Shown: positions 8,596 through 45,386, counted from the first letter of the stretch. The stretch is DNA of 64,000 bases from a virus (IMGVR_UViG_3300029305_001653:1-64000); one strand, 5' to 3'. Made by a program: numbers and translations. The notes: generated from the letters alone by a model not told the origin.

Positions 8596-8666
8596 GATCT
8601 ATTAGCTCAGTCGGTAAGAGTGCCTCACCTGGTAGGAGGTCCCAAGTTCGAGTCTTGGATAGGTCA
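8596..8666 (+). ncRNA. tRNA-like RNA or pseudo-tRNA with a shortened anticodon arm
   Basis: GATCTAT/ATAGGTC acceptor, intact D and T arms, 14-nt CCTCACCTGGTAGG in place of the 17-nt anticodon arm; no encoded CCA. Confidence 0.65.
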
Positions 8667-8679
8667 TTCTAATTACTAA

Positions 8680-8954: not shown

Positions 8955-9041
8955 GCTGGTGTGATGGAATAGGCAGACATTCAGGACTTAAAATCTTGTG
9001 CTAGTAATAGCGTACGAGTTCAAGTCTCGTCACCAGCACCA
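8955..9041 (+). tRNA. tRNA-Leu(TAA)
   Basis: CAGGA-CTTAAAA-TCTTG arm, long variable arm, CCA. Confidence 0.93.
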
Positions 9042-9115
9042 GAATAGCGACTACACTCTAAGGAGTGTGAGACTATGAAAATCAGTCTTGACAGCTTGGA
9101 AGAGACAAGCAATAT

Positions 9116-9192
9116 CCAGGTGTAGCTCAGTTTGATAGAGTGCATGGTTTGGGACCATGATGTCGCAGGTTTGAGTCCTGTCACCTGGACCA
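9116..9192 (+). tRNA. tRNA-Pro(TGG)
   Basis: CATGG-TTTGGGA-CCATG arm, CCA; T-loop variant TTTGAGT. Confidence 0.9.
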
Positions 9193-9266
9193 TAAGGCAG
9201 ATAACTGAAAAGTAGGACTGTGGTTAAATTCGCAGATAACCGAAAGAGTAAGACTGCCTTTCTTGT

Positions 9267-9342
9267 GCAGGATTAGTGTCAGCGGTTAGCACATCTGCCT
9301 TCCAAGCAGAAAGGGCGAGTTCGAATCTCGTATCTTGCTCCA
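9267..9342 (+). tRNA. tRNA-Gly(TCC), second non-identical copy
   Basis: TCTGC-CTTCCAA-GCAGA arm, GTTCGAATC, CCA. Confidence 0.9.
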
Positions 9343-9454
9343 AGCTTCTTTAGGTTGCTGTCTTCTATAGAAGCATTACTCAAATCCTTTTAATTTATCC
9401 CACGTTATCTGACAAAGCGGAAAGACGCTTGACAGTAGGACAGACTACATATCT

Positions 9455-9529
9455 AGCGGTGTAGCCAAGAGGTTAAGGCACAGGACTTTGACTCCTGCAT
9501 CGTTGGTTCAACTCCAACTACCGCTGCCA
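9455..9529 (+). tRNA. tRNA-Gln(TTG)
   Basis: CAGGA-CTTTGAC-TCCTG arm, CCA. Confidence 0.92.
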
Positions 9530-9611
9530 TGTGTCAGTTCTTAGCAAATAGTACTCTGACAATAAAAACAAAGGTCCGATTCGTAGTTGAGGGACTGTAA
9601 CCTCACCAGAT

Positions 9612-9698
9612 GGAGAGTTGTGATAATTGGTAGTCGGGCAGTCTTGAAAACTGTTGTGCAGAAATGCATTGTGGGTTCGAGTCCCACACTCTCCGCCA
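9612..9698 (+). tRNA. tRNA-Ser(TGA)
   Basis: GCAGT-CTTGAAA-ACTGT arm, long variable arm, GCCA end. Confidence 0.92.
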
Positions 9699-9699
9699 T

Positions 9700-9984
9700 G
9701 AGTAAGTTAATATTGAGATATGTAGCCCGATAAAGACGATAGGTGAAATGTAAGTAGGTACTTAGCTATTATCGAGATAGCAGGAATGATCCTTACCTAT
9801 GCAGTCCTAAAATTCCTGTGTGGTCAAGACTACATATCAATAGTCAGTGGAAACAAATCCGTAAGGTTGTAACTGGCTCTGGATTCTAAATCTATGAGAG
9901 ATAAGTGCGTAAAACAAGCTTTGTGAATTGACCTCATCAATTACCAAACCTGCTAGTGAGTGGAATGCTCACGATAACTTACTC
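9700..9984 (+). ncRNA. Unassigned ~285-nt multibranch structured RNA candidate
   Basis: Perfect closing stem GAGTAAGTTA/TAACTTACTC; internal GATATGTAG/CTACATATC; long-range TAGCAGG/CCTGCTA; lies between two tRNAs. Confidence 0.6.
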
Positions 9985-9994
9985 TTATATATAT

Positions 9995-10085
9995 GGAGAC
10001 GTACTCAAGTTGGTTAAGAGGACTGACTGCTACTCAGTTAGGTCACGTAAGTGATGCGAGAGTTCGAATCTCTCCGTCTCCGCCA
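9995..10085 (+). tRNA. tRNA-Ser(GCT)
   Basis: ACTGA-CTGCTAC-TCAGT arm, long variable arm, GCCA. Confidence 0.92.
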
Positions 10086-30170: not shown

Positions 30171-30180
30171 AATCCTCTGT

Positions 30181-30225
30181 AAAGTAGCCTAGGATTGATC
30201 TTTCTTACGTTGCTTAAGCTGTAAG
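30181..30225 (+). promoter_or_regulatory. Class-2 promoter-like element, copy 3
   Basis: AAAGTAGCCTA-N15-ACGTTGCTTAAGCTGTAAG. Confidence 0.55.
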
Positions 30226-30379
30226 CTTTAAGCTTAAAGCGATGCGTAAGCATCAATAAGCAACTCCGTAAATGGGGAGTCCTATTATATAATTATTATA
30301 ATAATTATATAATCAATAATAATGCTTAAGCTGTAAGCTAATTATCTAAGTAATCTCTGGGAGAGATTACTTAGATAAT
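30211..30379. repeat. Palindrome and direct-repeat cluster (possible replication origin)
   Basis: 17-bp direct repeat TGCTTAAGCTGTAAGCT (30211, 30323); 16-bp palindrome 30225-30240; perfect 30-bp A/T-only palindrome 30284-30313; 18-bp-arm inverted repeat 30341-30379. Confidence 0.8.
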
Positions 30380-30401
30380 ATATTATTATTCTGGAGGATA
30401 T

Positions 30402-30958: not shown

Positions 30959-31435
30959 ATGGATACAGATTTACTTATAACCTGCATGCTATCTAGTACT
31001 CTAGCAGCTACTGTGATTACATCTATAAAAGAATTAGTATTGTGGATATTAAATAGAAGAGCTAAAGTTGATGATGATAATAAAGAAGGTAAAGAGACTG
31101 AGATAATAGATATTCTCAGAGAACATCAGAAGTGTATAGAAACTCTTTCTAATACTATAACAGATATGCAGAAACAGATAGCACTTTCTGTAGAGAATGA
31201 TAAGATAATTCTAAAAGATAAGATTAGATATCTAGTATTAAAATATTCTGAATATGAAGAGATTACACTCGATGAGAAGCAAGCTATACAACATATGTGG
31301 CACATATATCATTATGGTCTAAAAGGTAATGGAGATCTTGATGACTATATGGAAATGTTAGACGAGATACCTGTAAAGTATACTGGATCTCATATACACT
31401 GTAATCACCAATGTAGGAGGGAATTTGATGAATAA
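30959..31435 (+). CDS. Membrane-anchored coiled-coil phage protein
   Basis: N-terminal hydrophobic segment; Y..L.GNG....M..L..IP motif common in Firmicute phages. Confidence 0.6.
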   Translation: MDTDLLITCMLSSTLAATVITSIKELVLWILNRRAKVDDDNKEGKETEIIDILREHQKCIETLSNTITDMQKQIALSVENDKIILKDKIRYLVLKYSEYEEITLDEKQAIQHMWHIYHYGLKGNGDLDDYMEMLDEIPVKYTGSHIHCNHQCRREFDE

Positions 31436-32015
31436 TCTAATAGCACAAGAATTAGTACGTAGTCGTATGAAGAGACTTAGAGAAGATTTTTCTCTGGAAG
31501 ATGATCCAGAAGAAACAGAACAGACATATACCTCTGCAGCTACTAGTATTAATAGTAGTAAGCTTCCTGCTTTATTCCATATGGTGACATTCGAGGAAGG
31601 ATCTATCAATCTTGATTACGGCGGAGGTAGATTCGATAACGTAGCTGAGTATCTAGAGGATACTTATGGAGCTACTAATCTAGTCTATGACAAATACAAT
31701 CGTAGTTCTGACCATAATAGAGAAGTCTTAAATACAATTAGGCAGAATGGTGGAGCTGATACAGTTACTTGTTCTAATGTATTAAACGTTATCGCAGAAG
31801 AGTCTGAGAGATTAGCAGTCCTCAGGAATTGTAAGAGATATCTCAAGTCTGGAGGTACTTGTTACATAACTGTATATGAAGGTAATGGTAAGGGAGAAGG
31901 AGCTCCTACTAAGGCAGGATATCAGCTTAATCGTAAGACGAAGGATTATGAGGATGAGATAAAGCAAGTATTCTCCGATGTGACTAGAAAAGGCAAATTG
32001 TACATATGTAGATAG
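31428..32015 (+). CDS. Class I SAM-dependent methyltransferase with N-terminal leader
   Basis: NLDYGGGRFD, YDKYN, DTVTCSNVLNVI, LKSGG..YITVYEG. Confidence 0.8.
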   Translation: MNNLIAQELVRSRMKRLREDFSLEDDPEETEQTYTSAATSINSSKLPALFHMVTFEEGSINLDYGGGRFDNVAEYLEDTYGATNLVYDKYNRSSDHNREVLNTIRQNGGADTVTCSNVLNVIAEESERLAVLRNCKRYLKSGGTCYITVYEGNGKGEGAPTKAGYQLNRKTKDYEDEIKQVFSDVTRKGKLYICR

Positions 32016-32027
32016 TAGAGAGGCATT

Positions 32028-32504
32028 ATGGATACCTTAAAGAAAATAATAGCAGAAGCATTTAAGTATAAATACATCTCCGAGTCTGCCGTAGAGTGGA
32101 TAGGAGGGCATCCATGGGACGATGACTTATTTCATAAGAATGCTGAGAAATTTGGATTGTCCGTAGAACAAGAATTTATATCTGTCCGAGGTAAGTCTCT
32201 AGAATTTGACTATGTAGTACTAAATACTCCTACTGTATTCTATCATGCTACTCCAAAAGAGAATGTAGAGAAGATTAAGAAAGAAGGTCTTCTACTATCT
32301 AATTCTGCGGAACAGTCAAGAGGTAAATATGTAGTAGGTGTATTCTTATCAGGGTCTAGTGAAGGTATCTCCAGATGGAGAGGAGATAATACTGCTGTAT
32401 TAAAGATAATCCTCCCTAGAGGTACTAAAGTATATCAAGATAGACAATCTAATGCAGTTTTCGTTAGAGAAAATATCCCTAGCAAATTTATTTCAGTAAA
32501 TTAA
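32028..32504 (+). CDS. ADP-ribosyltransferase-fold (Tpt1/DUF952-like) protein
   Basis: FYHATPKENVEKIKKEGL, GVFLS, VLKI, IPSKFI motif series. Confidence 0.65.
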   Translation: MDTLKKIIAEAFKYKYISESAVEWIGGHPWDDDLFHKNAEKFGLSVEQEFISVRGKSLEFDYVVLNTPTVFYHATPKENVEKIKKEGLLLSNSAEQSRGKYVVGVFLSGSSEGISRWRGDNTAVLKIILPRGTKVYQDRQSNAVFVRENIPSKFISVN

Positions 32505-32543
32505 AGGGATTCTAGTGTATTCGACGTATTATAATAATGTAAG
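32505..32543 (+). promoter_or_regulatory. Class-1 promoter, copy 11, directly upstream of the sigH-like gene
   Basis: AGGGATT-N12-ACGTATTATAATAATGTAAG. Confidence 0.85.
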
Positions 32544-32564
32544 CAATCCAAGAGGAGGATTAGG

Positions 32565-33674
32565 ATGAATAGTATTAATAATATAGTGAAGAAGCTTCGA
32601 GAAAATCGAATATTAAATGAGCGTGAGGACTATAGTAAGTATCCAAGAGATAAGTTAATCTCTCTAGCACAAGATGGAGATCAACTTGCTGTCGAGACTC
32701 TTATCTCTACTCATGAAGATTTCATAAAGAGAATGAGTAGTAAGTACTTCCTAGGTAGTGGAGATAAAGAAGATGTGGAACAGATAGCTACTATTGCTTT
32801 CTGGGATGCTATCAATACTTACGACCCTAAGATTAGTGGAGATTTCGAAGCTTATGCAGGTAGGACTATTAAACGTAGGATGTCTGATGAGATACGTAAA
32901 GAAGCAACTGATAAACGTCAAGCTAATAACTTAGCTACTTCTCTTGATGAGCCTGTAGCTAGTGATGATGAAGGTGGAGAGAGTACTCTAGGTTCTACAT
33001 TATCTTCTCAGGTATCTACAGAAGAAGAGTATCTAGGAAAGTTTGGAGCTCGAGATATAATGAAGTTCATAGAGAATAACTTATCTGATACTGAAAGAGA
33101 AGTTATAAAGAAGTATATTCAAGGTTATAAAATCCCTGAGATAGTGGAGGAGATGGACATGAAGTATAAGAGTGTAGAGAATGCTATCTTGAGAGTGAAG
33201 AATAAACTTGCAGAGCATATGAGAAGATCTCACAGTGAGTCAAAGAAACTGAAAGAGGATAATTCCTTAGAGTTCACAGAAGAAGAGAAGCAGGTACTCT
33301 CTAGCATCTTCGGTAAGATAGAGGAGAAAATTTCTATCAGTGAATCTGTACGTAGTGAGCTTGCAGCTACTTATGAGAAGTATACAGAAGAGCAGTTCGA
33401 TTATGAATTAGAAGATATCGAGGATGATGTAGAGGAGATATTATCCGAGTTAGAGGATACTGACTATGATAGCAGAGATGATCTAATTGATTCTTTAGGA
33501 GATCTAAGAGTTAAGCTCTTGACTATGGAGGAGTTCCTGAGTGATGAGCAATATGAAGTATCAGAGAAAATATTAAGTAATATTCGTAATGCCGAGAATG
33601 TAGAATTCAGAGGAGATACTCCTGACGTAGATCCTTACAGAGATAGAGGATTACGTCAGTCAGATTTTGTATAA
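32565..33674 (+). CDS. SigH (Spo0H)-like RNA polymerase sigma factor with N-terminal leader and ~140-aa acidic C-terminal extension
   Basis: AQDGDQLAVETLI, KYFLGSGDKEDVEQ, FEAYA..TIKRR, SLDEP, LSDTEREV..YIQG, KSVENAILRVKNKL parallel B. subtilis SigH (YFLIGADREDIVQ; SLDKP; LSDLERKV; KSIDNALQRVKRKL). Confidence 0.88.
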   Translation: MNSINNIVKKLRENRILNEREDYSKYPRDKLISLAQDGDQLAVETLISTHEDFIKRMSSKYFLGSGDKEDVEQIATIAFWDAINTYDPKISGDFEAYAGRTIKRRMSDEIRKEATDKRQANNLATSLDEPVASDDEGGESTLGSTLSSQVSTEEEYLGKFGARDIMKFIENNLSDTEREVIKKYIQGYKIPEIVEEMDMKYKSVENAILRVKNKLAEHMRRSHSESKKLKEDNSLEFTEEEKQVLSSIFGKIEEKISISESVRSELAATYEKYTEEQFDYELEDIEDDVEEILSELEDTDYDSRDDLIDSLGDLRVKLLTMEEFLSDEQYEVSEKILSNIRNAENVEFRGDTPDVDPYRDRGLRQSDFV

Positions 33675-33695
33675 TTCAGGAGGGAGAGATTGATT

Positions 33696-34694
33696 ATGAG
33701 CATTGACAATATAGTGAAGAGACTTAGAGAGTCTAGATTAAATGAAGAATCTAAAAAGTATGAATATAAGTTCGATATTCCGTGGAGAGAATCCATGAGT
33801 AATGAGTATGATGAGATGTATCATTACTATCCTAATATGGAATATGCAGATAGAATCATGAAGTCAGCAATCGCAGATTTCAATGATATAGACTGGTCAG
33901 AGTATACTTCCTCAGATGATCGTACAGAAGATTGTAATATCATCCGTATGACTATGGACTTTGATAGTAAAGGAAACTGCGTCATCACAGTAGTTACTAA
34001 TACTGTATGGGATGATGAACAGATCCAGTCTGTCATGGACTATCTTGAAGGTCAGATGAGTGATGGCTGGGGAGAAGGATTTGAGCAGAGAGAAGTTGCT
34101 CAAGAAACTGACTATGAAGAAGAGTGGGTAGAAGATGAAGAGGAAGAAGATGGAGGATACTATACAGAGAATAGGATTGTAAAGTATTACTATGGTCAAT
34201 TCTGGTGGAGTAGTAGGAGTAATCCGTGGACTATTACACTCCTCAGTACTCCTCATGATAAGAACATGCCTACGAATGAATCTAATAGTATCTCCATGGA
34301 ATTCGCTACAGATTCTGAAGCTCATGAGTGGGCAGAGGAGAATGGTTATCAAGTAGATAAGATTCAGCAAGGTAAGGGAGATAAGTCTTGTATCTGTTGG
34401 ATGAGTAAGATTGAGGAGTCTTCAGATTATCTGAATTCATTTAGTAAAGATGTCATGAGAGCAGTCAATAGTGAAGCTCCTAGTGCTCTTCACTGGAAAG
34501 ATGGAGACCTTGTTCAGAATACTAAAACTAATATAGTAGCTACTTTTAGAGGATATGAAAAGAACTCTATTACAGGTACGTATAGAGCAGTATTTGAGTA
34601 CGAAGATGACGGAGATTCTGTTATTGATAAAATCCCTCTCAAGACATTACAGTCAGATATCAAAAGTAAAATTTTAGTAAAGGTAATGAAATAG
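33696..34694 (+). CDS. Acidic multi-module protein with shared leader (putative internal head protein)
   Basis: MSIDNIVKRLRESRLNEE leader; LEGQMSDGWGEGFEQ motif. Confidence 0.6.
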   Translation: MSIDNIVKRLRESRLNEESKKYEYKFDIPWRESMSNEYDEMYHYYPNMEYADRIMKSAIADFNDIDWSEYTSSDDRTEDCNIIRMTMDFDSKGNCVITVVTNTVWDDEQIQSVMDYLEGQMSDGWGEGFEQREVAQETDYEEEWVEDEEEEDGGYYTENRIVKYYYGQFWWSSRSNPWTITLLSTPHDKNMPTNESNSISMEFATDSEAHEWAEENGYQVDKIQQGKGDKSCICWMSKIEESSDYLNSFSKDVMRAVNSEAPSALHWKDGDLVQNTKTNIVATFRGYEKNSITGTYRAVFEYEDDGDSVIDKIPLKTLQSDIKSKILVKVMK

Positions 34695-34717
34695 ATTGAT
34701 CGTAGGTGGTGGAGGAT

Positions 34718-36631
34718 ATGCGTAATTTAAGTAGTATCCCTCAAATTAAGAATCTTAATGAAGAAGAGAGTAGACTATTCTATGCTATTCTGTCAGCGTC
34801 ATCTAATAGATCTTCCTTAGATCTGTCTCCTATTGAAAATTTGTACAAGGTAGACTATGATGAGATCCCTGTATCTATAGATGAATTCCTAGAGAATGAT
34901 TACTATCTAGGAAAAGTATATAATAATGGTAAAAATATCTATCCTTACTGGAGAAATTTCCTACATAACTTCTTCCATGATAATCCAGAGAAGGCTTTCG
35001 AAGTAGCGTTAACAGGAGCTATCGGTGTCGGTAAGACAACTATCGCATCGATAGCTCTTATCTACTTAATATACAAAACTCTTTGTCTCAAAGATCCTCA
35101 AAAATTCTATGGACTATCTGCTAACTCTCCTATCGTATTCGTAGTAATGAATTTAACTTTAGAGTTGGCTTATAGCGGTCTTTATTCCTTGATAGTAGAA
35201 GCTATTAGATTGTCTCCTTGGTTCTGTGAAAGAGTAGATATAAGAGGTAAGTATGAATTCTCTATCACATTCCCTAAGAATGTAGCACTTATGGCTGGAT
35301 CTCAAACTACTCACACAATAGGTAAGAACGTATTAGGAGCTGTACTCGATGAAGTTAACTTCAGTAGTGCTCCTAAAGGTTCTAAAAATTCAGTGATGGA
35401 TATGTATCGTAATATTCGTAGACGTCTTGAGTCTCGATTCTTGAAGCAAGGTCGTATGCCAGGTATCCTGATGATGGTATCTTCTAAGAATACAGAGTTA
35501 GACTTCTTGGAGCAGTATATACAGAGTATCAAACATCAGAAGACTACATGGGTAGTAGATGAACCTGTATATAATATCAAACCTCCAGAGACATACATAG
35601 GTACTAGATTCAAAGTGGCTGTAGGTGATAAAACTAAAGAAAGTTATCTAGTAAAAGAAACAGATGATATAGATGAGATTTTGAGTAGAGGTTATCGTAT
35701 TATAGAAGTACCTACAGAGTATAGAGTAGCATTTGAGCAGGATATTAATGATGCCTTGAAGGACATAGCAGGTATCTCTGCTGTATCCACTAGTAAATTA
35801 ATTCCATATGCTGGACGTATAGATATATGCTTCGATAGTAAACGAAAGTCTCCATTCTATACAGAAGAGATTCAGTTAGGATTAGATAGTATCGATGATA
35901 TAAAAGACTTCTTGGAGGATCTTTCTATTCTAAGAAGAAATCTTAATAAACCAAGATTCGCTCATATAGATATAGGATTAAAGGGAGACAGATTAGGATT
36001 AGCAATCGCTCATAGTAGTAAGTCTATTACAGTAGATAGATATACAGCTACAGGAGCTATAGATAAAGTATCCGAGAATTTGTACGATATTGATTTAATG
36101 CTTTCTATAAAAGCATTACCTGGTAGCGAGATACCTCTCTTTAAAGTACGTGAATTTCTCATATGGCTCAATTCATATATAGGATATAAATTTAAGAAGA
36201 TTACTTTCGACGGATTCCAGTCTGCTGATAGTATCCAGTTATTGCAGATATCAGGATTACCTTCAGGATTGTTGTCTGTAGATAGGACTGATATCCCTTA
36301 TTTAAATCTTCGAGCTTGTATACTAGAACAGAGATTAGTAGGATACTACAATAGTATTTTACTAGAGGAATTACGTGACCTAGAGTATGACAGGAGAGCT
36401 AAAAAGGTAGACCATCCGATAGTTAAGTACGATGGTAGTCCTGGCTCAAAAGACTTATCTGATGCTCTTTGCGGAGCAGTATATAATGCTCAAGAATATT
36501 ATTCGAAGCAGAAAAATAATCATATCTCTAAAGAGACTAATGTTAATGCAGCTATGGATGCTTTAGCTAGACTAAAGAATCTGCGTAATATAGAGAAGAG
36601 TAAAGAGTATGATTGGGTACTATATGATTAA
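34718..36631 (+). CDS. Terminase large subunit
   Basis: Walker A GAIGVGKT, Walker B VLDEVN, nuclease AHIDIG, TFDGFQS, KVDHP..SKDLSDA. Confidence 0.92.
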   Translation: MRNLSSIPQIKNLNEEESRLFYAILSASSNRSSLDLSPIENLYKVDYDEIPVSIDEFLENDYYLGKVYNNGKNIYPYWRNFLHNFFHDNPEKAFEVALTGAIGVGKTTIASIALIYLIYKTLCLKDPQKFYGLSANSPIVFVVMNLTLELAYSGLYSLIVEAIRLSPWFCERVDIRGKYEFSITFPKNVALMAGSQTTHTIGKNVLGAVLDEVNFSSAPKGSKNSVMDMYRNIRRRLESRFLKQGRMPGILMMVSSKNTELDFLEQYIQSIKHQKTTWVVDEPVYNIKPPETYIGTRFKVAVGDKTKESYLVKETDDIDEILSRGYRIIEVPTEYRVAFEQDINDALKDIAGISAVSTSKLIPYAGRIDICFDSKRKSPFYTEEIQLGLDSIDDIKDFLEDLSILRRNLNKPRFAHIDIGLKGDRLGLAIAHSSKSITVDRYTATGAIDKVSENLYDIDLMLSIKALPGSEIPLFKVREFLIWLNSYIGYKFKKITFDGFQSADSIQLLQISGLPSGLLSVDRTDIPYLNLRACILEQRLVGYYNSILLEELRDLEYDRRAKKVDHPIVKYDGSPGSKDLSDALCGAVYNAQEYYSKQKNNHISKETNVNAAMDALARLKNLRNIEKSKEYDWVLYD

Positions 36632-36651
36632 ACAGGAGGTGAAGATTTTCT

Positions 36652-37599
36652 ATGAATTGTATATCTGAGATACTGCAATCTCTCAGAGAAAGTAGGGTCA
36701 GAGAAACTGTATTCGTCTATAAAGGTGCAGAGTATGAGAATAGATATGGGAATTATTATAGAAATCATAAACCTATCTCTAAGAAAGAGTATCATATTGC
36801 TCGGAGAGGGATACTATCTCAGAAAGACACACAAGGTACTATAGAGTATAGATTGAATTTACCTTACAAAGAATTCGCTAAGAAGATAGAGGATTTTCAA
36901 GAATTCATAGATGAGCTAGAGTATGACAAGGAGTACGAATTACCTAGAGAGACAAGAGGTCATCTTCCTAGGATAGATCCTTATGATGAGTATGAGAGAG
37001 TAGCTCAGATCATGGAAGATACTCAGATGTCTAAATTTGAAGCTTCTCAGGTAAATGATATCCTTTCTAGATATACATCTACTGATAGTTATACTACATT
37101 CTCAGATGAAGAAAAAGAGCTGTTAGATACTTACATAGATACTTCACCTATTTACTCTCCTCCTCCTGTATATAGAGGATTAGGGTTTAGAAAAAGATTA
37201 GGAGACGATAGTCTTAGTGGGTATAAATTGTTCTTAGATTTAGAAGAAGGTAGTGTAATTTCCTCTGAGAATTATTCATCTTTCAGTAGTAATCTTGATG
37301 TTGCAGTAGCATTTGCGAGTACTCACGGAGACTATCATGTGTACATCGTTAATACTAAGAATTTGTCTGGAGTAAGTATAGACCATTTATCTTCTATAGA
37401 CTACAATGAAGATGAGTTAATTTACAAAGCTAATACTAATATGACTGTCTTGAAGAAATTAGTGAAAGACAATATAGTTTATCTTCACGTTATAGAGTCT
37501 CCTATAGAAGAAGATTCAGAGGAAGAGATAATAAAAGTACCTCTACAAGGTAGTATGTTTATAGAGGAAGGAAGAAATTATGCGAGAAATCATAGATAG
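36652..37599 (+). CDS. R-S-E type ADP-ribosyltransferase (T4 Alt/Mod-like) with shared leader
   Basis: VYRG, YSSFSS..VA..F, NEDELI (ExE) catalytic motifs. Confidence 0.8.
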   Translation: MNCISEILQSLRESRVRETVFVYKGAEYENRYGNYYRNHKPISKKEYHIARRGILSQKDTQGTIEYRLNLPYKEFAKKIEDFQEFIDELEYDKEYELPRETRGHLPRIDPYDEYERVAQIMEDTQMSKFEASQVNDILSRYTSTDSYTTFSDEEKELLDTYIDTSPIYSPPPVYRGLGFRKRLGDDSLSGYKLFLDLEEGSVISSENYSSFSSNLDVAVAFASTHGDYHVYIVNTKNLSGVSIDHLSSIDYNEDELIYKANTNMTVLKKLVKDNIVYLHVIESPIEEDSEEEIIKVPLQGSMFIEEGRNYARNHR

Positions 37600-38080
37600 A
37601 CTAAGGACTAGTCGTATAGACGAAGCTAGGAAGAAAGTAGCTTTAGAAGCTCTAGCTACAGAGTTAAAAGATAAGTTATCTAAAGTAGAAGGTTACTCTC
37701 ATCATAAATTATCTATATCTCCGAACTACGATGAAGGATGCGTAGATGTACTATTCAGAGGTACTGATGATGCTTTTAGAGTATACCCTCAGAAGACTAA
37801 GATCTCTAATGAGAATTCTAATAAAGTAATATCTGTATCTTCTATAGATGGAGCTTATATATTAGGTACTAAAGTATATGATGAGGAAGGTAATTTGTTA
37901 GGAGAAGCTTTAGTAAGAACAAAAGCTGTACATAACAAATCAGATTACTCTGAGGACTTAACAAAAGCTGAGTATCGTTTTAATTCTAAGATTACTAATC
38001 TTCAGAAGTTAGAAAAGTATATAGCTAGGGAAGCTATTAATAATATGGAAAAGAACTCTAGAAAGAGAAGGGATTCTTAG
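37580..38080 (+). CDS. Hypothetical protein with shared leader
   Basis: MREIIDRLRTSRIDEA. Confidence 0.65.
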   Translation: MREIIDRLRTSRIDEARKKVALEALATELKDKLSKVEGYSHHKLSISPNYDEGCVDVLFRGTDDAFRVYPQKTKISNENSNKVISVSSIDGAYILGTKVYDEEGNLLGEALVRTKAVHNKSDYSEDLTKAEYRFNSKITNLQKLEKYIAREAINNMEKNSRKRRDS

Positions 38081-38107
38081 TTGTATCACGTATTATAATA
38101 ATGTAAG
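38069..38107 (+). promoter_or_regulatory. Class-1 promoter, copy 12
   Basis: AGGGATT-N12-ACGTATTATAATAATGTAAG. Confidence 0.85.
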
Positions 38108-38139
38108 GGAAACCTTATAATAATAAAAGGAGAGATAAT

Positions 38140-38442
38140 ATGTATATTGAACCTACAAAAGAAGTAAAAGAAGGCTCTATTTTTGATATTCATGAAGATG
38201 CTATGGATATATTACTCTATCCTGCTAGTGAAGACGTACCCTGTCCTTGGGATGCAGATATCATTATCAAAGATGGAGAAGTTATCCTCTCTGGAGGACT
38301 AGGACCTGGATTCTTCGGAGGAGCTAAATGTATCTGTAATTGTACTATAGGTAGATTTTCTCAGTTCTACAAGTTAGAGGTACCTGAAGATAATGAAGAA
38401 CTTATTGATGCTTTAACTTCTGCAGGATGGGAAGTAGTGTAA
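38140..38442 (+). CDS. Hypothetical moron-like gene
   Basis: Has its own promoter and terminator inside the head module. Confidence 0.7.
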   Translation: MYIEPTKEVKEGSIFDIHEDAMDILLYPASEDVPCPWDADIIIKDGEVILSGGLGPGFFGGAKCICNCTIGRFSQFYKLEVPEDNEELIDALTSAGWEVV

Positions 38443-38455
38443 TTCATGTCGATAT

Positions 38456-38488
38456 AAAAGAAGAGTATCAGATACTCTTCTTTTATTT
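38456..38488 (+). terminator. Rho-independent terminator
   Basis: AAAAGAAGAGTATC/GATACTCTTCTTTT. Confidence 0.75.
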
Positions 38489-38502
38489 AAGAAGGAGTGA
38501 TA

Positions 38503-38877
38503 TTGTTGACTATAGAAGAAAAGATTAAAGAAGCGTTCAAGAAAGATAAGTTACTGAAGGAAGCTTCTAAGTGGGATCCTGAAACTCATCCTAATATCTA
38601 TGAATTATCTAATTTCCTGAGGAAGTCAGGATACAAACTAGTAGATATTATCCCTCAGAATACTGAACTATTAATAGAACCTGTAGAGAAAACATATATG
38701 TATCCTGAGATATTACATGACGTACCTACTAAGAGTTTTCATATAAAAGTAGTAGAACATGGATTCTTGGTATCCTCCGATGTAGAGAGTGTAATATCAG
38801 GGTATGAAAATGCTCTAGGAGTAGTACGTCATCTTGAAGCTCTAGATCTTGACAAATTAGAAATTGAAGAGGAGTAG
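38503..38877 (+). CDS. Hypothetical protein with leader
   Basis: TIEEKIKEAFKKDKLLKEAS; RBS AAGGAG. Confidence 0.6.
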   Translation: MLTIEEKIKEAFKKDKLLKEASKWDPETHPNIYELSNFLRKSGYKLVDIIPQNTELLIEPVEKTYMYPEILHDVPTKSFHIKVVEHGFLVSSDVESVISGYENALGVVRHLEALDLDKLEIEEE

Positions 38878-38952
38878 TTACTACTATACTACTTCCTAGC
38901 ATAGCAGATAAGAAAACCATTCACGTAAGTAAAGAAATAAAGGAGGTGAGGA

Positions 38953-40641
38953 GTGAAGATGGGATTATTCAGTAAATCTAAGAAGCCTACTCAATCAAAC
39001 TCTCTCCCTGATGAAGCTTCTCTTCTGAAATATATAGCTAATCTGACTCCTGAAGATATAGATCTTCTGAAAGATGCAGCTATCAATAGATACAATGTAA
39101 ACCCTGAAGAGAGAAGTAAATCTTTAACAGATTATTTTAATCTGTTAAATTCTGTATTTAACAATGTTAATTTCAACTCTACAGGAAATACTCCTCATAC
39201 TAGAAATCAAAGGTATGAGATATATGATGAGATGGATGAGAGTACAGCGTATATCTCTTCTGCACTAGATATCCTTTCTGATGACGCTACACAAGCAGAT
39301 GAAGAAGGTATTATCATACATATTAAGTCTGAGTCAGCTAAGATACAGACTTTAGTCTCTGAATTCTTCGAAGAATTCGAGATAGAAGATAAAATATCTA
39401 AGTGGACAAGAGCAGTTGCGAAGTACGGAGATCTATTCATCAAGGTAGGAGGAGAGTACGGAAGAGGAGTAACTCATGTTAATGATACTATCTATCCTAG
39501 TATCATTGAACGTAGAGATCTGAATGGTAAATTAGTAGCTTTTTCTAATAGTCAAGATTCTGTCTACTCTAATACAGACTTGTACGCTCCTTGGGAGTTC
39601 ATACATTTTAGACACAAGGGAGATATCTATAAGGAAGAGAGTACTCATACACGACTAGGGAATAATGATGATACATTCGATAAGAATTTAACATCTGCGT
39701 ATGGACAGTCTATACTACGTCCAGCTATAAAAGTATACGCTCAGTTAAGATTCGTCGAGAATATGATTCTTCTTTCTCGATTGACTAATAGTATTCGTAG
39801 AAATATATTTTTAATCAATGTAGGAGATGTATCTCCTGATAAAGCTTTTGAGACTATATCTAATTATGCTCGATTATTAAAAAAGGATATTAATTTAAAT
39901 ATTGAAGAAGGTATATACTCATCTTCCAAGCATACTGTAAATTATGATGAAGATATCTTCATTCCTGTAGGAGATCCTCAGAATGATGTACGTATAGAGT
40001 CTGTAGGAGGAGAAGTTAATATACAGGAGCAGTATGATTTAGAGTACCTACTAAATAAATTATTTTCTGCATTAAAAGTCCCTAAAGCTTATCTGAACTA
40101 TGAACAAGATCTAAATGCAAGATCTACTCTCATACAATTAGATATACGATATGCAAGATCAGTAAGTCAGTTACAGACTACTATGACTGCAGGATTACGT
40201 AGATTAGTTAAGATTCATTTAGCTTATCTAGGACTGAACCCAGATGAAGTAGATTTAGATATCACATTGACTCCTGTCTCTGCTATAGATGAAGAAGCTA
40301 GAGCAGAACAGCAGCAAAAACAGATATCTAATGCAAGAGACATGTGGGACGTATTAACTTCTATGAGAGATGGTATAGGAGAGACTGCAGAGCCTATGAA
40401 TATATCAGAAGCTGCAGAGCATATTATGAGTAAGTACCTTGAGTTAGACAAGTCTATTATAGATAAAATCTTTAATAGAGAGTCTGATATAAATCCTCCT
40501 ACTAGAGTATTCAGTCATAGAGAGTATAGAGGTACAGACTATAATGCTATGTATCCGTCTACTAGCAATCAGGAAAGATATGAGCAAATTAGAGAGTCTT
40601 TAATAGACTCTAAAATTAATAATACAGAACAAATTCACTAA
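38953..40641 (+). CDS. Portal protein (T4 gp20-like)
   Basis: Y..YDEMD..ISSALDILSDDA, KYGD.F, FIHFR, YGQSIL, R..F.INVG, EDIFIP, KLFSALKVPKAYL, DIRYAR. Confidence 0.93.
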   Translation: MKMGLFSKSKKPTQSNSLPDEASLLKYIANLTPEDIDLLKDAAINRYNVNPEERSKSLTDYFNLLNSVFNNVNFNSTGNTPHTRNQRYEIYDEMDESTAYISSALDILSDDATQADEEGIIIHIKSESAKIQTLVSEFFEEFEIEDKISKWTRAVAKYGDLFIKVGGEYGRGVTHVNDTIYPSIIERRDLNGKLVAFSNSQDSVYSNTDLYAPWEFIHFRHKGDIYKEESTHTRLGNNDDTFDKNLTSAYGQSILRPAIKVYAQLRFVENMILLSRLTNSIRRNIFLINVGDVSPDKAFETISNYARLLKKDINLNIEEGIYSSSKHTVNYDEDIFIPVGDPQNDVRIESVGGEVNIQEQYDLEYLLNKLFSALKVPKAYLNYEQDLNARSTLIQLDIRYARSVSQLQTTMTAGLRRLVKIHLAYLGLNPDEVDLDITLTPVSAIDEEARAEQQQKQISNARDMWDVLTSMRDGIGETAEPMNISEAAEHIMSKYLELDKSIIDKIFNRESDINPPTRVFSHREYRGTDYNAMYPSTSNQERYEQIRESLIDSKINNTEQIH

Positions 40642-40670
40642 AGACTTTTAGAGAAGAGAGGTAAAATTCG

Positions 40671-42245
40671 ATGAGACGTAATAAACTTTTAGAATCTTTG
40701 AGTGCTAAATCTCAGGAGAATACAATGTTCAGAAGATATAATCTATCTGAGATTATATCTGAGAGTTACAAGACTCTCTACGATAGTGAGAGAGGATCTA
40801 ATCTCCAGAAGCTAGTAGAAGCACATCTCGAAGATGTAAGGAACAATCCTACAGATATTGATAGACTTTCTCGTCAGTTATGCAATCTAAAATATTTATC
40901 GATGATGGTAGAGTCTAAAAAGATGGAGGATGAAGAGCTTTTAGTCCCTGAAGAGGAGTATAGTAAAGTAGTTCCTGACGAGACTATAGAAGAGTCGAAA
41001 GAGGCAGAAGAGAAAGAGGTAGTAGAGGAAAATGACAAAACAGTTGCAGGAGATATAGAACTCTCTGATGAAGAATTAGAGGAATTAGCTAAGCATCTAG
41101 AAGAGATTCGTAAGAATAAGAAAACTAATGAGTCTTCTAGACCTCGTAGATTGAAGAAGTTAGGAGAAGCAGAGGTCTCAGGGTATACCTGGGATAGTGA
41201 GTGGTCTAAAGAATATGGACTCTCTGGACGTACAAAGTATTATATCAATAGAGGAGAATCTCTTGATAATCAGATTATAGGTACTATTTATGAGCCTGAT
41301 GGTGAAGAGTTTTTAGACTACGGTGTTGATATCTACGATACTCGTAAAAATGATATATTAGCAGGTACAGGTTATGATGAAGATGCTAATAGTTTTAGTT
41401 CGGAAGAAGAAGCTAAAAGATGGGTAGAGAATTGGTTCTCTAAAAATCTGAAAGAATCTTCTAGACCTCGTAGATTGAAGAGAACTAATGAATCTTCTTC
41501 ATGGGATAGAATTCCCTTGACTGAGTTCAAGAAGAAGTCGGCTACTAAGGCTTTCGTGAAGACATTCAGAAAGCTAGATAGTAAATTGCGTGAAGGTGCA
41601 GCACTAACTCGTCAAGAGTCTATTGCTCTTTATAAAGCAGCTAATTCTGCTATGACTCAACTCTCCGTAGAGTTAGAATACAATCCTGAATTCCTTAATA
41701 CATTCAGAGAATCTACACAGCTCCTTTCTGTAGATGTATCTAAGTTATTAGGTAGCTTAATGGAAGGTAAAGCTCCTAGTAAAGCTACTATGAAGTCTTT
41801 AGCTAAATTCTCTGAAGCTCTCCTCTATGAAGAGGAAGAAGAGGAGTTACCTCCTATCGAAGACGAAGATGTTAATTCCTCTGAAGAGTCTGAGGAGTTT
41901 GATCAGGAGTATGCAGAGGCGAGAGTAGAGTTACATAAAGAGTTAGCTAAAGAACATGAAGATTCTGAAGATCCTGATGTCCAAGAGAAACTCTCTCAGG
42001 ATGCAGAGGAAGTAACATCTTTACCTGGAATCACTGAGGAGCAAGTTGCTGAGATCGTAGGAGAAGAAGAATCAGAAGAAGAAGAAGCTCCTGTAGAAGA
42101 TGAATCTGACTCAGAGCTAGAAGAGGAAGAAGATATTACAGATGAGGAATTAGCTGCTCTCAAGAAACATCTCAAAGAGATGAGAGACACTAAGAAGAAT
42201 CCTGTAGAAGAGTCTACTAAACCTCGTAAATTACTTAAGAGGTAA
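40671..42245 (+). CDS. Acidic prohead core/scaffold-like internal protein
   Basis: Between portal and protease; Glu-rich; many (I/L/V)xE sites; internal repeats. Confidence 0.6.
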   Translation: MRRNKLLESLSAKSQENTMFRRYNLSEIISESYKTLYDSERGSNLQKLVEAHLEDVRNNPTDIDRLSRQLCNLKYLSMMVESKKMEDEELLVPEEEYSKVVPDETIEESKEAEEKEVVEENDKTVAGDIELSDEELEELAKHLEEIRKNKKTNESSRPRRLKKLGEAEVSGYTWDSEWSKEYGLSGRTKYYINRGESLDNQIIGTIYEPDGEEFLDYGVDIYDTRKNDILAGTGYDEDANSFSSEEEAKRWVENWFSKNLKESSRPRRLKRTNESSSWDRIPLTEFKKKSATKAFVKTFRKLDSKLREGAALTRQESIALYKAANSAMTQLSVELEYNPEFLNTFRESTQLLSVDVSKLLGSLMEGKAPSKATMKSLAKFSEALLYEEEEEELPPIEDEDVNSSEESEEFDQEYAEARVELHKELAKEHEDSEDPDVQEKLSQDAEEVTSLPGITEEQVAEIVGEEESEEEEAPVEDESDSELEEEEDITDEELAALKKHLKEMRDTKKNPVEESTKPRKLLKR

Positions 42246-42256
42246 GTAAGAGGAGT

Positions 42257-42643
42257 ATGGAGTATATAGTTAGGCGTCTAATAGAGTCTCGTAGACTCGA
42301 AGAAGCTAGAGGAGATACGACATTAAGACAAACTCTTGAGATATTAGCTGATGAATTTAATATAGAGAATTATGACTCTACTATAGAGTACTGCCTTCAT
42401 CATAAAAATGGTAACCATGATGAAAATAAGTTATACAATCTAGTACTTATGCCTAGTAGACGTCACAATAGTTATCATACTAAACTCAATCGTAGAGGTA
42501 TAGATAAACAGTCTAAAGAAGCTCTAGAACTCTTCGATAAAGAGTATGCAAACGACTGTGTATTCGTAGGAGAATTTCTTTACAGTAAGTTGATATTAGC
42601 TACTCAAGAAGTAAAAACAGCAGATAGTGAATGTCTAGAATAA
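42257..42643 (+). CDS. HNH-motif protein with shared leader
   Basis: LHHKNGNHDENKLYNLVLM..RHNSYH; leader MEYIVRRLIESRRLEEA. Confidence 0.75.
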   Translation: MEYIVRRLIESRRLEEARGDTTLRQTLEILADEFNIENYDSTIEYCLHHKNGNHDENKLYNLVLMPSRRHNSYHTKLNRRGIDKQSKEALELFDKEYANDCVFVGEFLYSKLILATQEVKTADSECLE

Positions 42644-42744: not shown

Positions 42745-43860
42745 TTGCAGCTTGTAGAAAAATCTATAGGTCCTTTATCAACTCAAGGAAAGAAAATCTT
42801 ATCAGGACTTTTTGCTGAGCTAGGTACACTTAATCAAAATGGCAGACGCTATCCTGATGACATATACGAATCTGCGTATGAAGAGTTGATACCAAAGATA
42901 AAAGATAAAAGATTGTTAGGTGAATTAGATCACCCTGTAGACTACGATGAAGTTAGATTATCTAATGTTTCTCATGTCATTACAGACTGTGAGATTCTAG
43001 AAGATCAAGGAGTCAAGAAAGTATATGGCTCTGTCGAATTATTAGATACTCCAGCTGGATTGATAGCTCAGTCTTTAGTAGAAGCAGGTATTCCTTTAGG
43101 CATCTCTTCTAGAGGAGTAGGCTCTACAAGACAAGTAAGAGATGGAGTAGAAGTTACTGACTTAAAACTTATCACTTATGATTTAGTAGCTGATCCGTCA
43201 TTTGCTAATGCGGTACTTTCTCCAGATCAGTCTAAAAAATTATCAGATAGTCTAGAATACATTGAGTCTAAACTACCTCTAAATGAATCTTTAGAGCATA
43301 ATAGCATAAGAGATATGATACATAATATTCGTGAATCTCTCATTAGTAAGAAGACTACTCCTACTAAAGAGATTAGTATAAATAAAGCAGAGACTGATAA
43401 TCTAAAAAGATTATTAGAGACTGCAGAGTCTACTATTAAATCAGATACAGAGAAGATGATAGAGTCTCGTAAAGAGATTAAATCTTTGAGAAGAGAGCTC
43501 ATGAGTGCTAATAAGAAGTATGAAAGCTTATTAGAAAATATGTTTAATCTACAAGAAGATTATAATAGATTGAAAGAAGCCTCTACCTATAAAGAAAAGA
43601 TTAATTCTCTTGAGCTAGAAATCGTAGAGCTAAGAAAAAATTTAGCTGTTGAAAAGAGAGGTATGTCGTACTCTCAAGTATCTGAATTACTAGAAGGAGC
43701 TAATACTATAGATGAAATCGAGAATAGACTGAATTCTCTATCTTCTGTAGGACGGAAACGTCAGACTACCATCAATATACAGTCTAATACTTTGACTGAG
43801 AGTACTAAGACTGAAAATCCTAGATTGTCTGGATTAGCTGCTATAGTATCTAGAGTTTAG
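42745..43860 (+). CDS. Prohead protease (T4 gp21-like) with C-terminal coiled-coil scaffold-like region
   Basis: NQNGRRYP, LGELDHP, VSHVI, LDTPAG, GISSRGVGS, TYDLVADPS. Confidence 0.93.
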   Translation: MQLVEKSIGPLSTQGKKILSGLFAELGTLNQNGRRYPDDIYESAYEELIPKIKDKRLLGELDHPVDYDEVRLSNVSHVITDCEILEDQGVKKVYGSVELLDTPAGLIAQSLVEAGIPLGISSRGVGSTRQVRDGVEVTDLKLITYDLVADPSFANAVLSPDQSKKLSDSLEYIESKLPLNESLEHNSIRDMIHNIRESLISKKTTPTKEISINKAETDNLKRLLETAESTIKSDTEKMIESRKEIKSLRRELMSANKKYESLLENMFNLQEDYNRLKEASTYKEKINSLELEIVELRKNLAVEKRGMSYSQVSELLEGANTIDEIENRLNSLSSVGRKRQTTINIQSNTLTESTKTENPRLSGLAAIVSRV

Positions 43861-43880: not shown

Positions 43881-45386
43881 ATGAAGTTCAATAATAACAA
43901 GACTCTCGCTGAGAGTGTAATTATGAGAGGTCTTGATCTCTCTGAGTCTCGTAGATGGAAAGACTACACAACTGCTATCCGTGAAGGTTACAAGCAGAAG
44001 CACAAGTCTTCTATTCCGGACAATATCATCGCTACTACTGCTACTCTTCTTGAGAATACTTATCAGTATGCAGCTCGTATGGATGAAACAACTAGAGCAG
44101 TAAATCTCGGTACTTTCATCGACTATGGTTTCGATGTTATCTCCGCTACTGTTCCTAACCTTATCGCTCATGATATCGTATCCGTTCAGCCTATGAACGC
44201 TAAGCATGGTGCTATCTTCTATCTCCAGTACCTCTACGGTAACAACAAGGGTACTATCACTGCAGGTACTGAGATGAATTCTCCGTTCACTGGTATCAAT
44301 GGTAACTCCTTCAACTTCTCTAATGACGTAGTTGATGGTGAGTCCATTGGTCTTGGTGATGGTGCTACTACATCTTTCTCTACTACATTAGGTTACACTC
44401 CTGTACGTTCAGGTGCTACTGTAATTTATGTAGGCGGTGTTGAAGTTGCTAGAGTAGTTAGCTCTGCAAATGGTGTAGATACACTCGCAGCAATCGCTGG
44501 TTCTGGTGTATCGGGTACTGTAAACTTAGCTACTGGTGAAATTTCTCTTACTCTTGCAAATGCTCCTGCAGCAGATGCAGCAATCACTGCAGTTTATCGT
44601 TATGATATGGATCTAACTACTGTAGGTTACTCTCAGGTAGATCTTGATCTCGCTTCTATCTCTCTTGAAGCATTCCCGAGAAAGCTTCGTGCTCGTTGGC
44701 TCCTTGATGCTGGCTTCGAACTTCAGAAGATGAAGGGTATCGATGCTGAGTCTGAACTTGTTACTGCTATGAGCAATGAGATCAAGTTTGAAATCGATGG
44801 TGAGCTTCTCAAGGAACTCTATGCTAAGGCTGCTTGGACTGGATTCACTTGGGACTGCCAGATGCCTGGTAATCAGCTTAGCTACATGGAATACAAGCGT
44901 ACTATTATCGATCTCTTTACTGAAATGAGTAATAAGATCTTCACTGGTACAAAGCGTGTAGGTGCAAACTTCATTGTAGCTGGTGTTAATGTATGTAATA
45001 TCATTGAGACACTTCCTGAGTTCTCTGCTGATAACCTTGGTACTAAGTCTATCAATGGTCCTCACAAGATCGGTCGTCTCTCTAACAAGTGGGATGTTTA
45101 CAAGAATCCGTTCTACAATGACAACAACTTCGTACTTGGTTACAAGGGTAGCTCTTGGTTAGATGCTGGTTTCGTATACGCTCCTTACATGCCTCTCTAC
45201 GCTACTCCGACTCAGGTACTTGATGACTTCATCTTCCGTAAGGGTCTTGCTACTTCTTATGGTCAGGTGATGCTCAACAACAAGCTCTATGCTAAGGGTA
45301 GTATTACTAACTTCACTGCATCTCGTATGGTTAGTGATGCACTCACTGTTTCTCCTGCAGAAGGCTCTATCTGGGCTAATGCTTAA
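43881..45386 (+). CDS. Major capsid protein (T4 gp23-like)
   Basis: PNLIAHDIVSVQPM, RKLRARW, EI..EIDGE, GYKG...LDAGFVYAPYMPL; highly biased codon usage. Confidence 0.96.
   Translation: MKFNNNKTLAESVIMRGLDLSESRRWKDYTTAIREGYKQKHKSSIPDNIIATTATLLENTYQYAARMDETTRAVNLGTFIDYGFDVISATVPNLIAHDIVSVQPMNAKHGAIFYLQYLYGNNKGTITAGTEMNSPFTGINGNSFNFSNDVVDGESIGLGDGATTSFSTTLGYTPVRSGATVIYVGGVEVARVVSSANGVDTLAAIAGSGVSGTVNLATGEISLTLANAPAADAAITAVYRYDMDLTTVGYSQVDLDLASISLEAFPRKLRARWLLDAGFELQKMKGIDAESELVTAMSNEIKFEIDGELLKELYAKAAWTGFTWDCQMPGNQLSYMEYKRTIIDLFTEMSNKIFTGTKRVGANFIVAGVNVCNIIETLPEFSADNLGTKSINGPHKIGRLSNKWDVYKNPFYNDNNFVLGYKGSSWLDAGFVYAPYMPLYATPTQVLDDFIFRKGLATSYGQVMLNNKLYAKGSITNFTASRMVSDALTVSPAEGSIWANA

Follow-up and report, generated by a model that had tools for sequence, protein, structure and literature searches.

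Why should a sigma factor, a probable ADP-ribosyltransferase (ART), an HNH-like protein and several other unrelated proteins start with the same short peptide, and why do most of their genes lie beside the head genes of a phage? The question is raised by the viral contig IMGVR_UViG_3300029305_001653 (112,222 bp; ~35% G+C; genes almost all on the + strand), the first 64 kb of which are hereafter called the window. The shared leader has the consensus I-V-K-K-L-R-E-N/S-R-x-L-x-E, comprises ~13 to 19 residues and is strictly N-terminal. We consider it likely that this leader is a propeptide which targets proteins to the capsid and is removed by the prohead protease, analogous but not homologous to the capsid-targeting sequence (CTS) of phage T4. 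With somewhat less assurance, we lean toward the fuller reading in which, in addition, the SigH-like sigma factor encoded at this locus is genuine virion cargo.

The proposal of the initial annotation that unrelated proteins share a short N-terminal leader was borne out by two approaches. The strict pattern [ILVM][ILVM]xx[LIVM][RIK][ET][SN]R was run on the six-frame translation of the whole 112-kb genome and matched seven times. Five matches were the N termini of the open reading frames (ORFs) starting at 32565, 33696, 36652, 37580 and 42257, and the other two fell in noncoding frames. Furthermore, a position-specific scoring matrix (PSSM) was trained on 31 leaders of related loci only, none of them from this genome, to avoid circularity. 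At a threshold of 12 bits it recognized seven N termini of the phage, namely those of the same five ORFs and of 23968 and 24362 (13.8 to 33.9 bits; Table 1), and none of 30,398 internal positions of the genome (maximum, 8.2 bits). When the N termini were shuffled 500 times, the mean number at threshold was 0.04 and the maximum was 1.

Some of the leaders originally listed had to be revised. The actual leaders of 23968 and 24362 are not the ILES..VKEA/LQEA segments first named but TIDKLHEQRQ and TIDKLQEKRQ, respectively, at the extreme N terminus. The variant KIxEAFK, noted in 32028 and 38497, turned out to be a likeness of two sequences that the profile failed to recover. The methyltransferase (MTase)-like protein 31428 does have a leader-like start, but in a variant form (seen as IAERLxxxRR in relatives) that reached only 7.1 bits, under the threshold. 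This protein matches, at 85% identity, the C-terminal 179 aa of 340- to 353-aa proteins in the related loci L002 and L010, which carry an IAERLxRxR leader; its gene is a deletion derivative of such longer genes, lacking ~150 aa, and the junction recreates a leader-like N terminus. The ORF at 32028-32504, directly upstream of the promoter of the sigma gene, encodes a 158-aa protein without a canonical leader and with weak similarity to RNA 2'-phosphotransferases (Tpt1/KptA; NAD-using fold).

In the related phages, we collected 99 distinct leaders. Their common denominator is hydrophobic-hydrophobic-x-x-L-x-x-x-R, followed by [LIM]-x-E within a few residues, and the motif begins 3 to 8 residues after the Met in 105 of 108 proteins. 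The Glu of the first L-x-E is present in 75 of the 99 leaders and a downstream [LIVMF]-x-E in 88; 95 have at least one of the two, so that at the sequence level almost all leaders have a hydrophobic-x-Glu end. The leader of the sigma factor could be followed furthest. This protein has 51 homologues in public metagenomes, and the leader is kept on 49 of the 52 sequences at an overall identity of 41 to 60%; two of the three leaderless exceptions are cellular SigH-like proteins on bacterial contigs. The closest cellular SigH proteins have no leader. An exhaustive search yielded 27 clusters at 50% identity with an E value of <1e-30, and the divergent representatives that we inspected mostly had variant leaders, such as I-A-N-R-L-L-R-R-R-L-T-E-A and I-T-K-Y-L-F-K-K-R-M-N-E-A.

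In the sigma genes of eight phages, L11 and L17 of the leader are each specified by five different codons and I7 by three, and the DNA upstream of leader genes is not conserved. We conclude from the synonymous variation and the unconserved upstream DNA that selection acts on the leader peptide. A DNA repeat or a downstream box as the origin of the leader was rejected on the codon evidence. It is also hardly credible that the leader is a functionless 5' gene end that recombination spread while genes were inserted into a plastic region. The region is indeed mosaic, modules have been exchanged between leader proteins, the leader of the MTase was rebuilt by deletion, and the starts of the sigma gene and the next gene share 71% DNA identity across 58 nt. 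Against such a scar speak the unconserved upstream DNA, a motif that is never internal in this genome, and core positions that were held through up to five synonymous codons and despite the low overall identity of the sigma homologues.

The leader is portable. With the leader removed, the cargo proteins fell into at least 12 clusters, and thus a common tag is shared by unrelated proteins. In eight related loci it heads DUF5662 proteins (in which the Pfam match begins at residue 25, after the leader), a nucleotidyltransferase-like protein, the longer MTases, an HNH protein and many small proteins of unknown function. Many cargo proteins are small and lack an enzymatic signature, and PADLOC detected nothing significant among them. 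The cargo also changes quickly: the ART was found in none of the eight loci, the 166-aa protein p166 in two (L002 and L004) and the HNH protein in one (L006), while the leaderless genes for p126 and p100 were present in eight and six, respectively. A constant tag with changing cargo beside head genes is the pattern that the T4 literature gives for internal proteins (PMC3012670, PMC9026906). The distant relative L014, found by a metagenome scan with the portal, had no N-terminal leader in the 5.8 kb available upstream; its homologue of the 332-aa protein p332 contains the leader-like IRESKIKKLHES at an internal position only. Upstream of that gene, L014 harbors ~10 tandem noncoding repeats of roughly 60 to 70 nt each (positions 1-700).

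The leader genes are linked to the head genes: six of the eight lie inside 11.2 kb of the 112 kb, beside the head module (binomial P, 2e-5). This head is of the T4 type, since a gp20-type portal, a gp21-family prohead protease and a gp23-type capsid protein are all encoded (Table 1). The protease belongs to family S77 (PF03420 over residues 18 to 161 at 56 bits; cutoff, 27), and its C-terminal ~200 aa form a predicted helical, scaffold-like part. In the eight related loci the gene order is kept, with variable genes, sigma, a variable gene, terminase, small genes, portal, core protein, protease and capsid. In line with this, the placement of sigma, terminase and portal is conserved, and PF27249 was found on every terminase homologue. 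In L010 (10192-13392), the terminase gene encodes 1066 aa with an intein that contains an HNH domain.

Between portal and protease, all relatives encode an acidic candidate prohead-core protein of 482 to 770 aa. In our phage, its density of [LIVM]xES is among the highest of the larger proteins. The DNA repeat in its gene has copies at 41127-41157, 41451-41481 and 42207-42237, and each of the encoded repeats is preceded by Glu, as if protease cuts freed short basic peptides.

Protease-type sites may connect the leader to this head. The capsid propeptide contains LAE↓S, LSE↓SRR, IRE↓G and TLLE↓N (arrows, putative cuts), of which LSE↓SRR has the L-x-E-S-R/K core of the leader, and the first 60 residues of the protein hardly vary among five phages. 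Relative to the conserved VPNLIAHD block, TLLE↓N is placed where we presume the gp23-type maturation cut to fall. The scaffold half of the protease, like the core protein, is rich in [LIVM]xES; in a seven-phage alignment, its sites LNE↓S, IRE↓S, LLE↓S, LKE↓S and LTE↓S are conserved. The recurring sites pointed out initially (LAES, LSES and IREG in the capsid protein; LNES, IRES and LTES in the protease/scaffold) are thus present, and they are invariant in four and six aligned relatives, respectively. Genome-wide, [LIVM]xE[SN][RK] occurs 23 times in the proteome: 6 of these are leader sites, 4 lie in three head proteins (1,396 aa) and 13 lie in the 31,422 aa of the other proteins. The leader core L-R-E-S/N-R may correspond to the preferred context of the phage protease; this is suggestive and falls short of proof because the motif is short.

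A tag for some other partner, such as a host Clp-type unfoldase, a chaperone or RNA polymerase, could likewise give unrelated proteins a shared lifetime or location by docking or turnover, and the leader resembles N-terminal degrons in being short and strictly N-terminal. We judge this very improbable, since no independent evidence points to a partner of this kind, and the linkage to head genes, the E-S-R/K core shared with capsid propeptide and scaffold, and a second site cluster in the sigma factor (see below) would all be coincidences.

That the leader-bearing ORF 32565 encodes a SigH-like sigma factor, as initially annotated, was supported by profile searches. PF04542 matched at 3e-12 (46.6 bits; cutoff, 24), TIGR02937 at 68 bits (cutoff, 42.9) and PF08281 at 25.2 bits, just short of its cutoff of 25.7, so that regions 2 and 4 of the sigma-70 family are present. 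The SigH model TIGR02859 aligned from position 6 to 197 of 198 with residues 28 to 219 of the protein and yielded 97.8 bits, versus an equivalog cutoff of 294.8; the protein is therefore SigH-like but not a SigH orthologue. The top PDB matches were sigma factors, the best being the Bacillus subtilis SigH model 9a4r_A. A PF04542 search of the genome found no second match. An Atlas search with the sigma tail (aa 226 to 369) retrieved generic helical bundles only. In phages with short sigma factors (~260 aa), this acidic helical tail (window 33300-33674) exists as a separate 128-aa gene (L001, 1152-1538; P0109). The separate protein begins with R-L-A-K-K-I-L-x-x-x-G-Y-x-V, a motif located behind the leader of 23968 and 24362 as well.

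The AlphaFold2 (AF2) model of the sigma factor (mean predicted local distance difference test score [pLDDT], 78) was confident in the sigma2-linker-sigma4 core and in a helical bundle at residues 239 to 343. The pLDDT was below 50 at residues 13 to 20 and 224 to 231, which flank the core. Behind region 4, the linker reads H-S-E-S-K-K-L-K-E (consensus, R-E-S-K-K-[IL]-R-E). All phage homologues share this motif, which is missing from cellular SigH because the latter ends at that point; in the phage proteins it is followed by a conserved helix and then by a further [LI]-[RK]-E-S. According to the model, two conserved, predicted-flexible site clusters bracket the sigma core at approximately residues 20 to 225.

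Sites around a sigma core also bring to mind pro-sigmaE and pro-sigmaK of sporulating Bacillus. By analogy, the leader could be a pro-sequence that keeps the sigma factor, ART, nuclease and MTase inactive or tethered until a cytoplasmic protease removes it, with no packaging involved. Indeed, the phage sigma factor is related to sporulation-type sigma factors, pro-sigmaK (8vjl_B) is among its structural matches, the leader terminates in protease-like sites, and several of the cargo enzymes are potentially harmful to the producing cell. Nevertheless, we regard such a role as quite improbable. The leader is not hydrophobic, unlike sporulation pro-sequences; beside the leader genes, no other protease gene was present among the ORFs scanned; and neither the many small cargo proteins without an enzymatic signature nor the link to the head module fits. 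Moreover, prohead proteases of the T4 family act inside assembled proheads (PMC9026906).

As for the promoters, the sequence AGGGAWT-N13-ACGTATTATAATAATGTAAG occurs 13 times in the window, where 0.02 copies are expected, which agrees with the 13 SigH-like promoters counted before; the genome total is 17. All copies are on the + strand, and their spacing is invariant. They span 7360-51980 in the window, with further copies at genome positions 83920, 90819, 105363 and 110696. Copies directly precede the sigma-terminase(-ART) operon (32524), the portal-capsid operon (38088) and a tail operon (51961), and others precede many small early-looking genes. The -10 element is mostly CGTAT here and CGAAT in L002, L004, L006 and L011. 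CGAAT is the -10 consensus of cellular SigH, and the -35 element AGG(G)AWT and the spacing fit a cellular SigH promoter. We infer that these promoters are read by the phage sigma factor, and the copy before its own gene would make autoregulation possible. Canonical SigA-like sites are not enriched on the coding strand (29 versus 40 on the other strand) and are mostly intragenic; a near-consensus SigA promoter, TTAACA-17-TATAAT, is located at 90705 in a large divergent intergenic region. A second promoter-like class, GCTCAAC-N14-CTT(G/A)CGTTnCTTATAATGTAAG, was found at approximately 99830, 108170 and 90590 of the genome and 30190 of the window. It has the downstream TATAATGTAAG in common with the first class and a different upstream element.

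A genome in which most promoters, including that of the sigma gene, depend on the phage's own sigma factor needs a starter, which could be a delivered sigma factor, host SigH or a few host-type promoters. The packaging reading that we prefer would provide the first of these. The leader would act as a functional analogue of the CTS of T4 internal proteins: leader proteins would be made together with the head genes and drawn into a prohead core for which the acidic 524-aa protein and the S77 protease-scaffold fusion would form the basis. Trimming of the leader by the prohead protease would then take place after hydrophobic-x-Glu, at L-R-E↓N/S-R and/or at [LIM]-x-E 4 to 6 residues downstream. The sigma factor would also be cut in the R-E↓S-K-K-[IL]-R-E linker just behind region 4, so that after both cuts a minimal SigH-like core of ~200 aa would remain. 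The matured cargo (sigma core, probable Arg-specific ART, HNH protein and several unknowns) would stay in the head and leave it with the DNA. In the next cell, the delivered sigma core would bind the host core RNA polymerase and open the SigH-type promoters, including that of its own gene.

These steps do not carry equal weight. That a delivered sigma factor is what starts transcription is a tentative proposal. We are slightly more doubtful still that in this clade a single phage sigma factor, acting on one SigH-type promoter class, accounts for most or all transcription, including that of the structural operons and of the sigma gene, and that the resulting bootstrap problem is solved by a capsid-carried, leader-loaded sigma factor that is cut at both ends.

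Several observations weigh against packaging or against a delivered starter. The leaders were no more amphipathic than their own shuffles when the helical hydrophobic moment was calculated, and AF2 modeled the leader with low confidence. The N terminus of the capsid protein scored -1.4 on the leader profile, and beyond L-x-E-S-R the leader showed no similarity to the N termini of the phage's own head proteins. Comparison with the T4 CTS also revealed no sequence similarity and hence no homology; the T4 tag and the leader consensus I-V-K-K-L-R-E-N-R-I-L-N-E share only the hydrophobic-x-Glu end, which is a low-information motif. Two of the leader genes (23968 and 24362) are located in an early-looking region. 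The phage and all its relatives are uncultured, and we know of no precedent for a sigma factor that works after passage through a phage tail. Finally, the promoter class is not specifically early, contrary to what had been assumed, since copies also head structural operons; host SigH might prime these promoters, and the SigA promoter at 90705 could start the cycle, in both cases without an injected sigma factor.

The last points suit a host-dependent start, in which the first phage sigma factor arises through the action of host SigH, or of SigA at a few host-type promoters, and then amplifies itself from its own promoter, whether or not it is packaged. The leader would then serve another end, such as the late removal of surplus sigma factor and enzymes from the cytoplasm or the useful delivery of nonsigma cargo only. 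The cellular-type -35 and -10 elements and spacing (with the consensus CGAAT in four relatives), the possible autoregulation and the use of the same promoters for the terminase, capsid and tail operons are all compatible with it. Still, we consider a host-dependent start unlikely. It leaves unexplained why the leader was retained on nearly all sigma homologues across deep divergence and why conserved site clusters exactly bracket the sigma core, and the strand distribution and mostly intragenic position of SigA-like sites also speak against it.

The four alternatives explain less; in particular, they do not account as well for the linkage to the head module, for the E-S-R/K core in common with head proteins, or for the second cluster of sites that follows region 4. 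From the originally proposed system of capsid-packaged, protease-matured cargo, the portable leader, the SigH-like sigma factor, the probable ART, the gp21-family protease and the recurring sites were retained, and the part concerning early promoters was weakened.

Among the other leader-bearing proteins, 36652 is a probable ADP-ribosyltransferase of the R-S-ExE type. Its motifs Y174-R175-G176, S210-F-S-S213 and E253-x-E255 occur in the catalytic order and are invariant in six homologues, as is E18 at the leader end. Its Atlas neighbors belong to ADPrib_exo_Tox/ART clusters (feature score, 0.93; template modeling score, ~0.5), several of which contain a fused MuF or minor-capsid domain. Profile matches in the PDB were weak (Vis, E value of 0.037; ExoT, 0.25), phrog_16619 ("minor head protein") matched at 6e-9, and Pfam gave no match. 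The AF2 model was poor (mean pLDDT, 49), and a small beta domain was its sole confident part. This beta-hairpin domain (F/Y-x-V-G-x-x-x-Y ... I-S-x-x-E-Y-x-x-A) follows the leader in the ART (window 36703-36816), in the sigma fusions P0067, P0070, P0073 and P0080, and in the cargo protein P0166, and could represent a second module common to leader proteins.

Homologues of p332 in L002, L004 and L010 have the leader, and the homologue of the HNH protein in L006 carries it at another place of the head module. Relatives of 23968 in L004 are located within the head module.

Table 1. Positions of the leader-bearing proteins, head genes and promoters in the window
Feature	Position	Strand	Remarks
Leader-variant protein, 117 aa	23968-24321	+	TIDKLHEQRQ + IKLAKEILESRGY; PSSM, 15.4 bits
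Leader-variant paralogue of 23968, 202 aa	24362-24970	+	PSSM, 13.8 bits
Methyltransferase-like protein, 195 aa	31428-32015	+	Variant leader LIAQELVRSR; weak Methyltransf_23 match
SigH-type promoter	32493-32543	+	Directly upstream of the sigma gene
SigH-like sigma factor, 369 aa	32565-33674	+	Leader, aa 1-19; sigma2/sigma4 core, ~aa 28-219; linker; helical tail, aa 239-343
Leader of the sigma factor	32565-32621	+	MNSINNIVKKLRENRILNE; PSSM, 33.9 bits; I7, L11, R12 and E13 at least 90% conserved in 46 homologues
p332, 332 aa	33696-34694	+	Modular C-terminal part; PSSM, 32.8 bits; adjoins sigma in most relatives
Probable large terminase	34706-36631	+	Walker A GAIGVGKT; weak phrog_2 match; no leader
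Probable ADP-ribosyltransferase, 315 aa	36652-37599	+	Leader (PSSM, 16.4 bits); small beta domain, aa 18-55; R-S-ExE ART domain
p166, 166 aa	37580-38080	+	PSSM, 17.3 bits; leader-bearing homologues in L002 and L004 only
SigH-type promoter	38057-38107	+	Upstream of the portal-protease-capsid operon
Portal, T4 gp20 type	38953-40641	+	PF07230 at 2e-41
Candidate prohead-core protein, acidic, 524 aa	40671-42245	+	N-terminal KLLES; three repeats (N/K/E)E-S-S/T-R/K-P-R-R/K-L-K/L-K/R; DNA repeat D9
HNH-like protein, 128 aa	42257-42643	+	PSSM, 28.9 bits; phrog_7545 HNH at 9e-8; between core protein and protease
Prohead protease, S77 (gp21 family)	42745-43860	+	PF03420; phrog_207 at 7e-40; fused to a predicted helical, scaffold-like C-terminal half
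Major capsid protein, gp23 type	43881-45386	+	PF07068 at 4e-56; N-terminal propeptide

Concerning the phage itself, the terminal 126 bases at the contig start are found again near the opposite end, inside the last 164. Megablast of the head module against cultured phages gave no match. The closest cultured capsid proteins (~39 to 41% identity) are those of the Listeria phage LIS04, the Bacillus phage SP-15 and the Bacillus cereus phage vB_BceM-HSE3, and the head region of HSE3 has no leader in common with our phage. The host is probably a Firmicute, because a Clostridia-type SigH is the nearest cellular sigma factor. Eleven clustered tRNA matches lie at 7619-10082 of the window; one of them (7824-7996) is 173 nt long, far above normal tRNA size. 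An element of ~200 nt with palindromic AAGCTT-rich arms and AT-rich repeats is common to an intergenic part of the window (30171-30401) and to genome positions 90507-90864, where it separates divergent operons. A replication origin, a control region and an RNA are all conceivable. An Rfam scan of the window detected tRNAs only, with no match for the window copy of this element.

To our knowledge, T4 and closely related phages are the only ones for which the loading of proteins into the capsid via a short, removable tag is understood in detail. The locus described here appears to follow the same loading logic with an unrelated tag, in a distant clade that probably infects Firmicutes, and with a large and quickly changing set of cargo. 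If this is true, tag-based cargo loading would be a general, evolvable feature of T4-type heads, and a simple sequence rule would suffice to list the injected proteome of a phage. By delivering a sigma factor, a phage would have a third means of controlling the first minute of transcription, in addition to virion RNA polymerases and modifiers of the host enzyme like Alt, and such delivery would explain how a genome starts whose promoters all depend on its own sigma factor. The leader tag might also be used to pack foreign proteins into Gram-positive phages.

The closest known counterpart is T4. There, propeptides of 10 to 19 residues target the unrelated internal proteins (IPs) to the core and are removed by gp21 (PMC9026906, PMC3012670). 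The leader is similar in being a short N-terminal putative propeptide on unrelated, fast-evolving proteins with a hydrophobic-x-Glu end, in its association with gp20, gp21-family and gp23-family head genes, and in that the cargo differs between close relatives while the tag is constant. Unlike in T4, the host here is probably a Firmicute, the protease is fused to a scaffold-like region, a sigma factor is among the proposed cargo, and some cargo may have an additional C-terminal propeptide. For the ART Alt of T4, packaging, trimming at both ends and ejection are established (PMC9026906, PMC3012670), and trimming at both termini is what we propose for the sigma factor. Here, too, a probable R-S-ExE ART is encoded in a phage with a T4-type head and begins with a short piece ending in a protease-type site. 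The 315-aa ART, however, has no detectable sequence relation to Alt and combines the generic leader with a small beta domain.

Other devices also use an N-terminal part to load enzymes, including ARTs, into phage heads: in phage P1, a signal within the first 30 residues of DarB is sufficient for packaging (PMC9024508), and polymorphic toxins are fused to MuF (PMC5576092). In contrast to the leader, for which we propose cleavage, the P1 signal has 30 aa and no proteolytic removal is reported in the paper that describes it (PMC9024508), and MuF is a whole domain of a structural protein and not a cleavable peptide (PMC5576092).

The sigma factor shares the two-domain architecture with regions 2 and 4 with cellular SigH of B. 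subtilis and Clostridia and with SPO1 gp28. SigH models are its best sequence and structure matches, and the phage promoters have SigH-like -35 AGG(G)AWT and -10 G(A/T)AT elements and spacing. In contrast to cellular SigH, it has the N-terminal leader and a C-terminal extension of ~145 aa. Known phage sigma factors are made after infection. Our literature search found no paper describing a deliberately packaged sigma factor; the sigma factor of a Twort-like phage was detected in virion preparations, and the authors judged it to be a copurifying contaminant (PMC5618024).

Virion RNA polymerases (vRNAPs) do enter the cell with the genome, as shown for the N4 vRNAP and for the multisubunit vRNAPs of phiKZ, SPN3US and AR9, of which some subunits are cut by the prohead protease (PMC7598289, PMC9026906). 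The proposed delivery of the sigma factor resembles these systems in that particle-borne transcription machinery would allow early transcription without prior phage protein synthesis. It differs in that only the specificity subunit would be delivered, reprogramming the core enzyme of the host.

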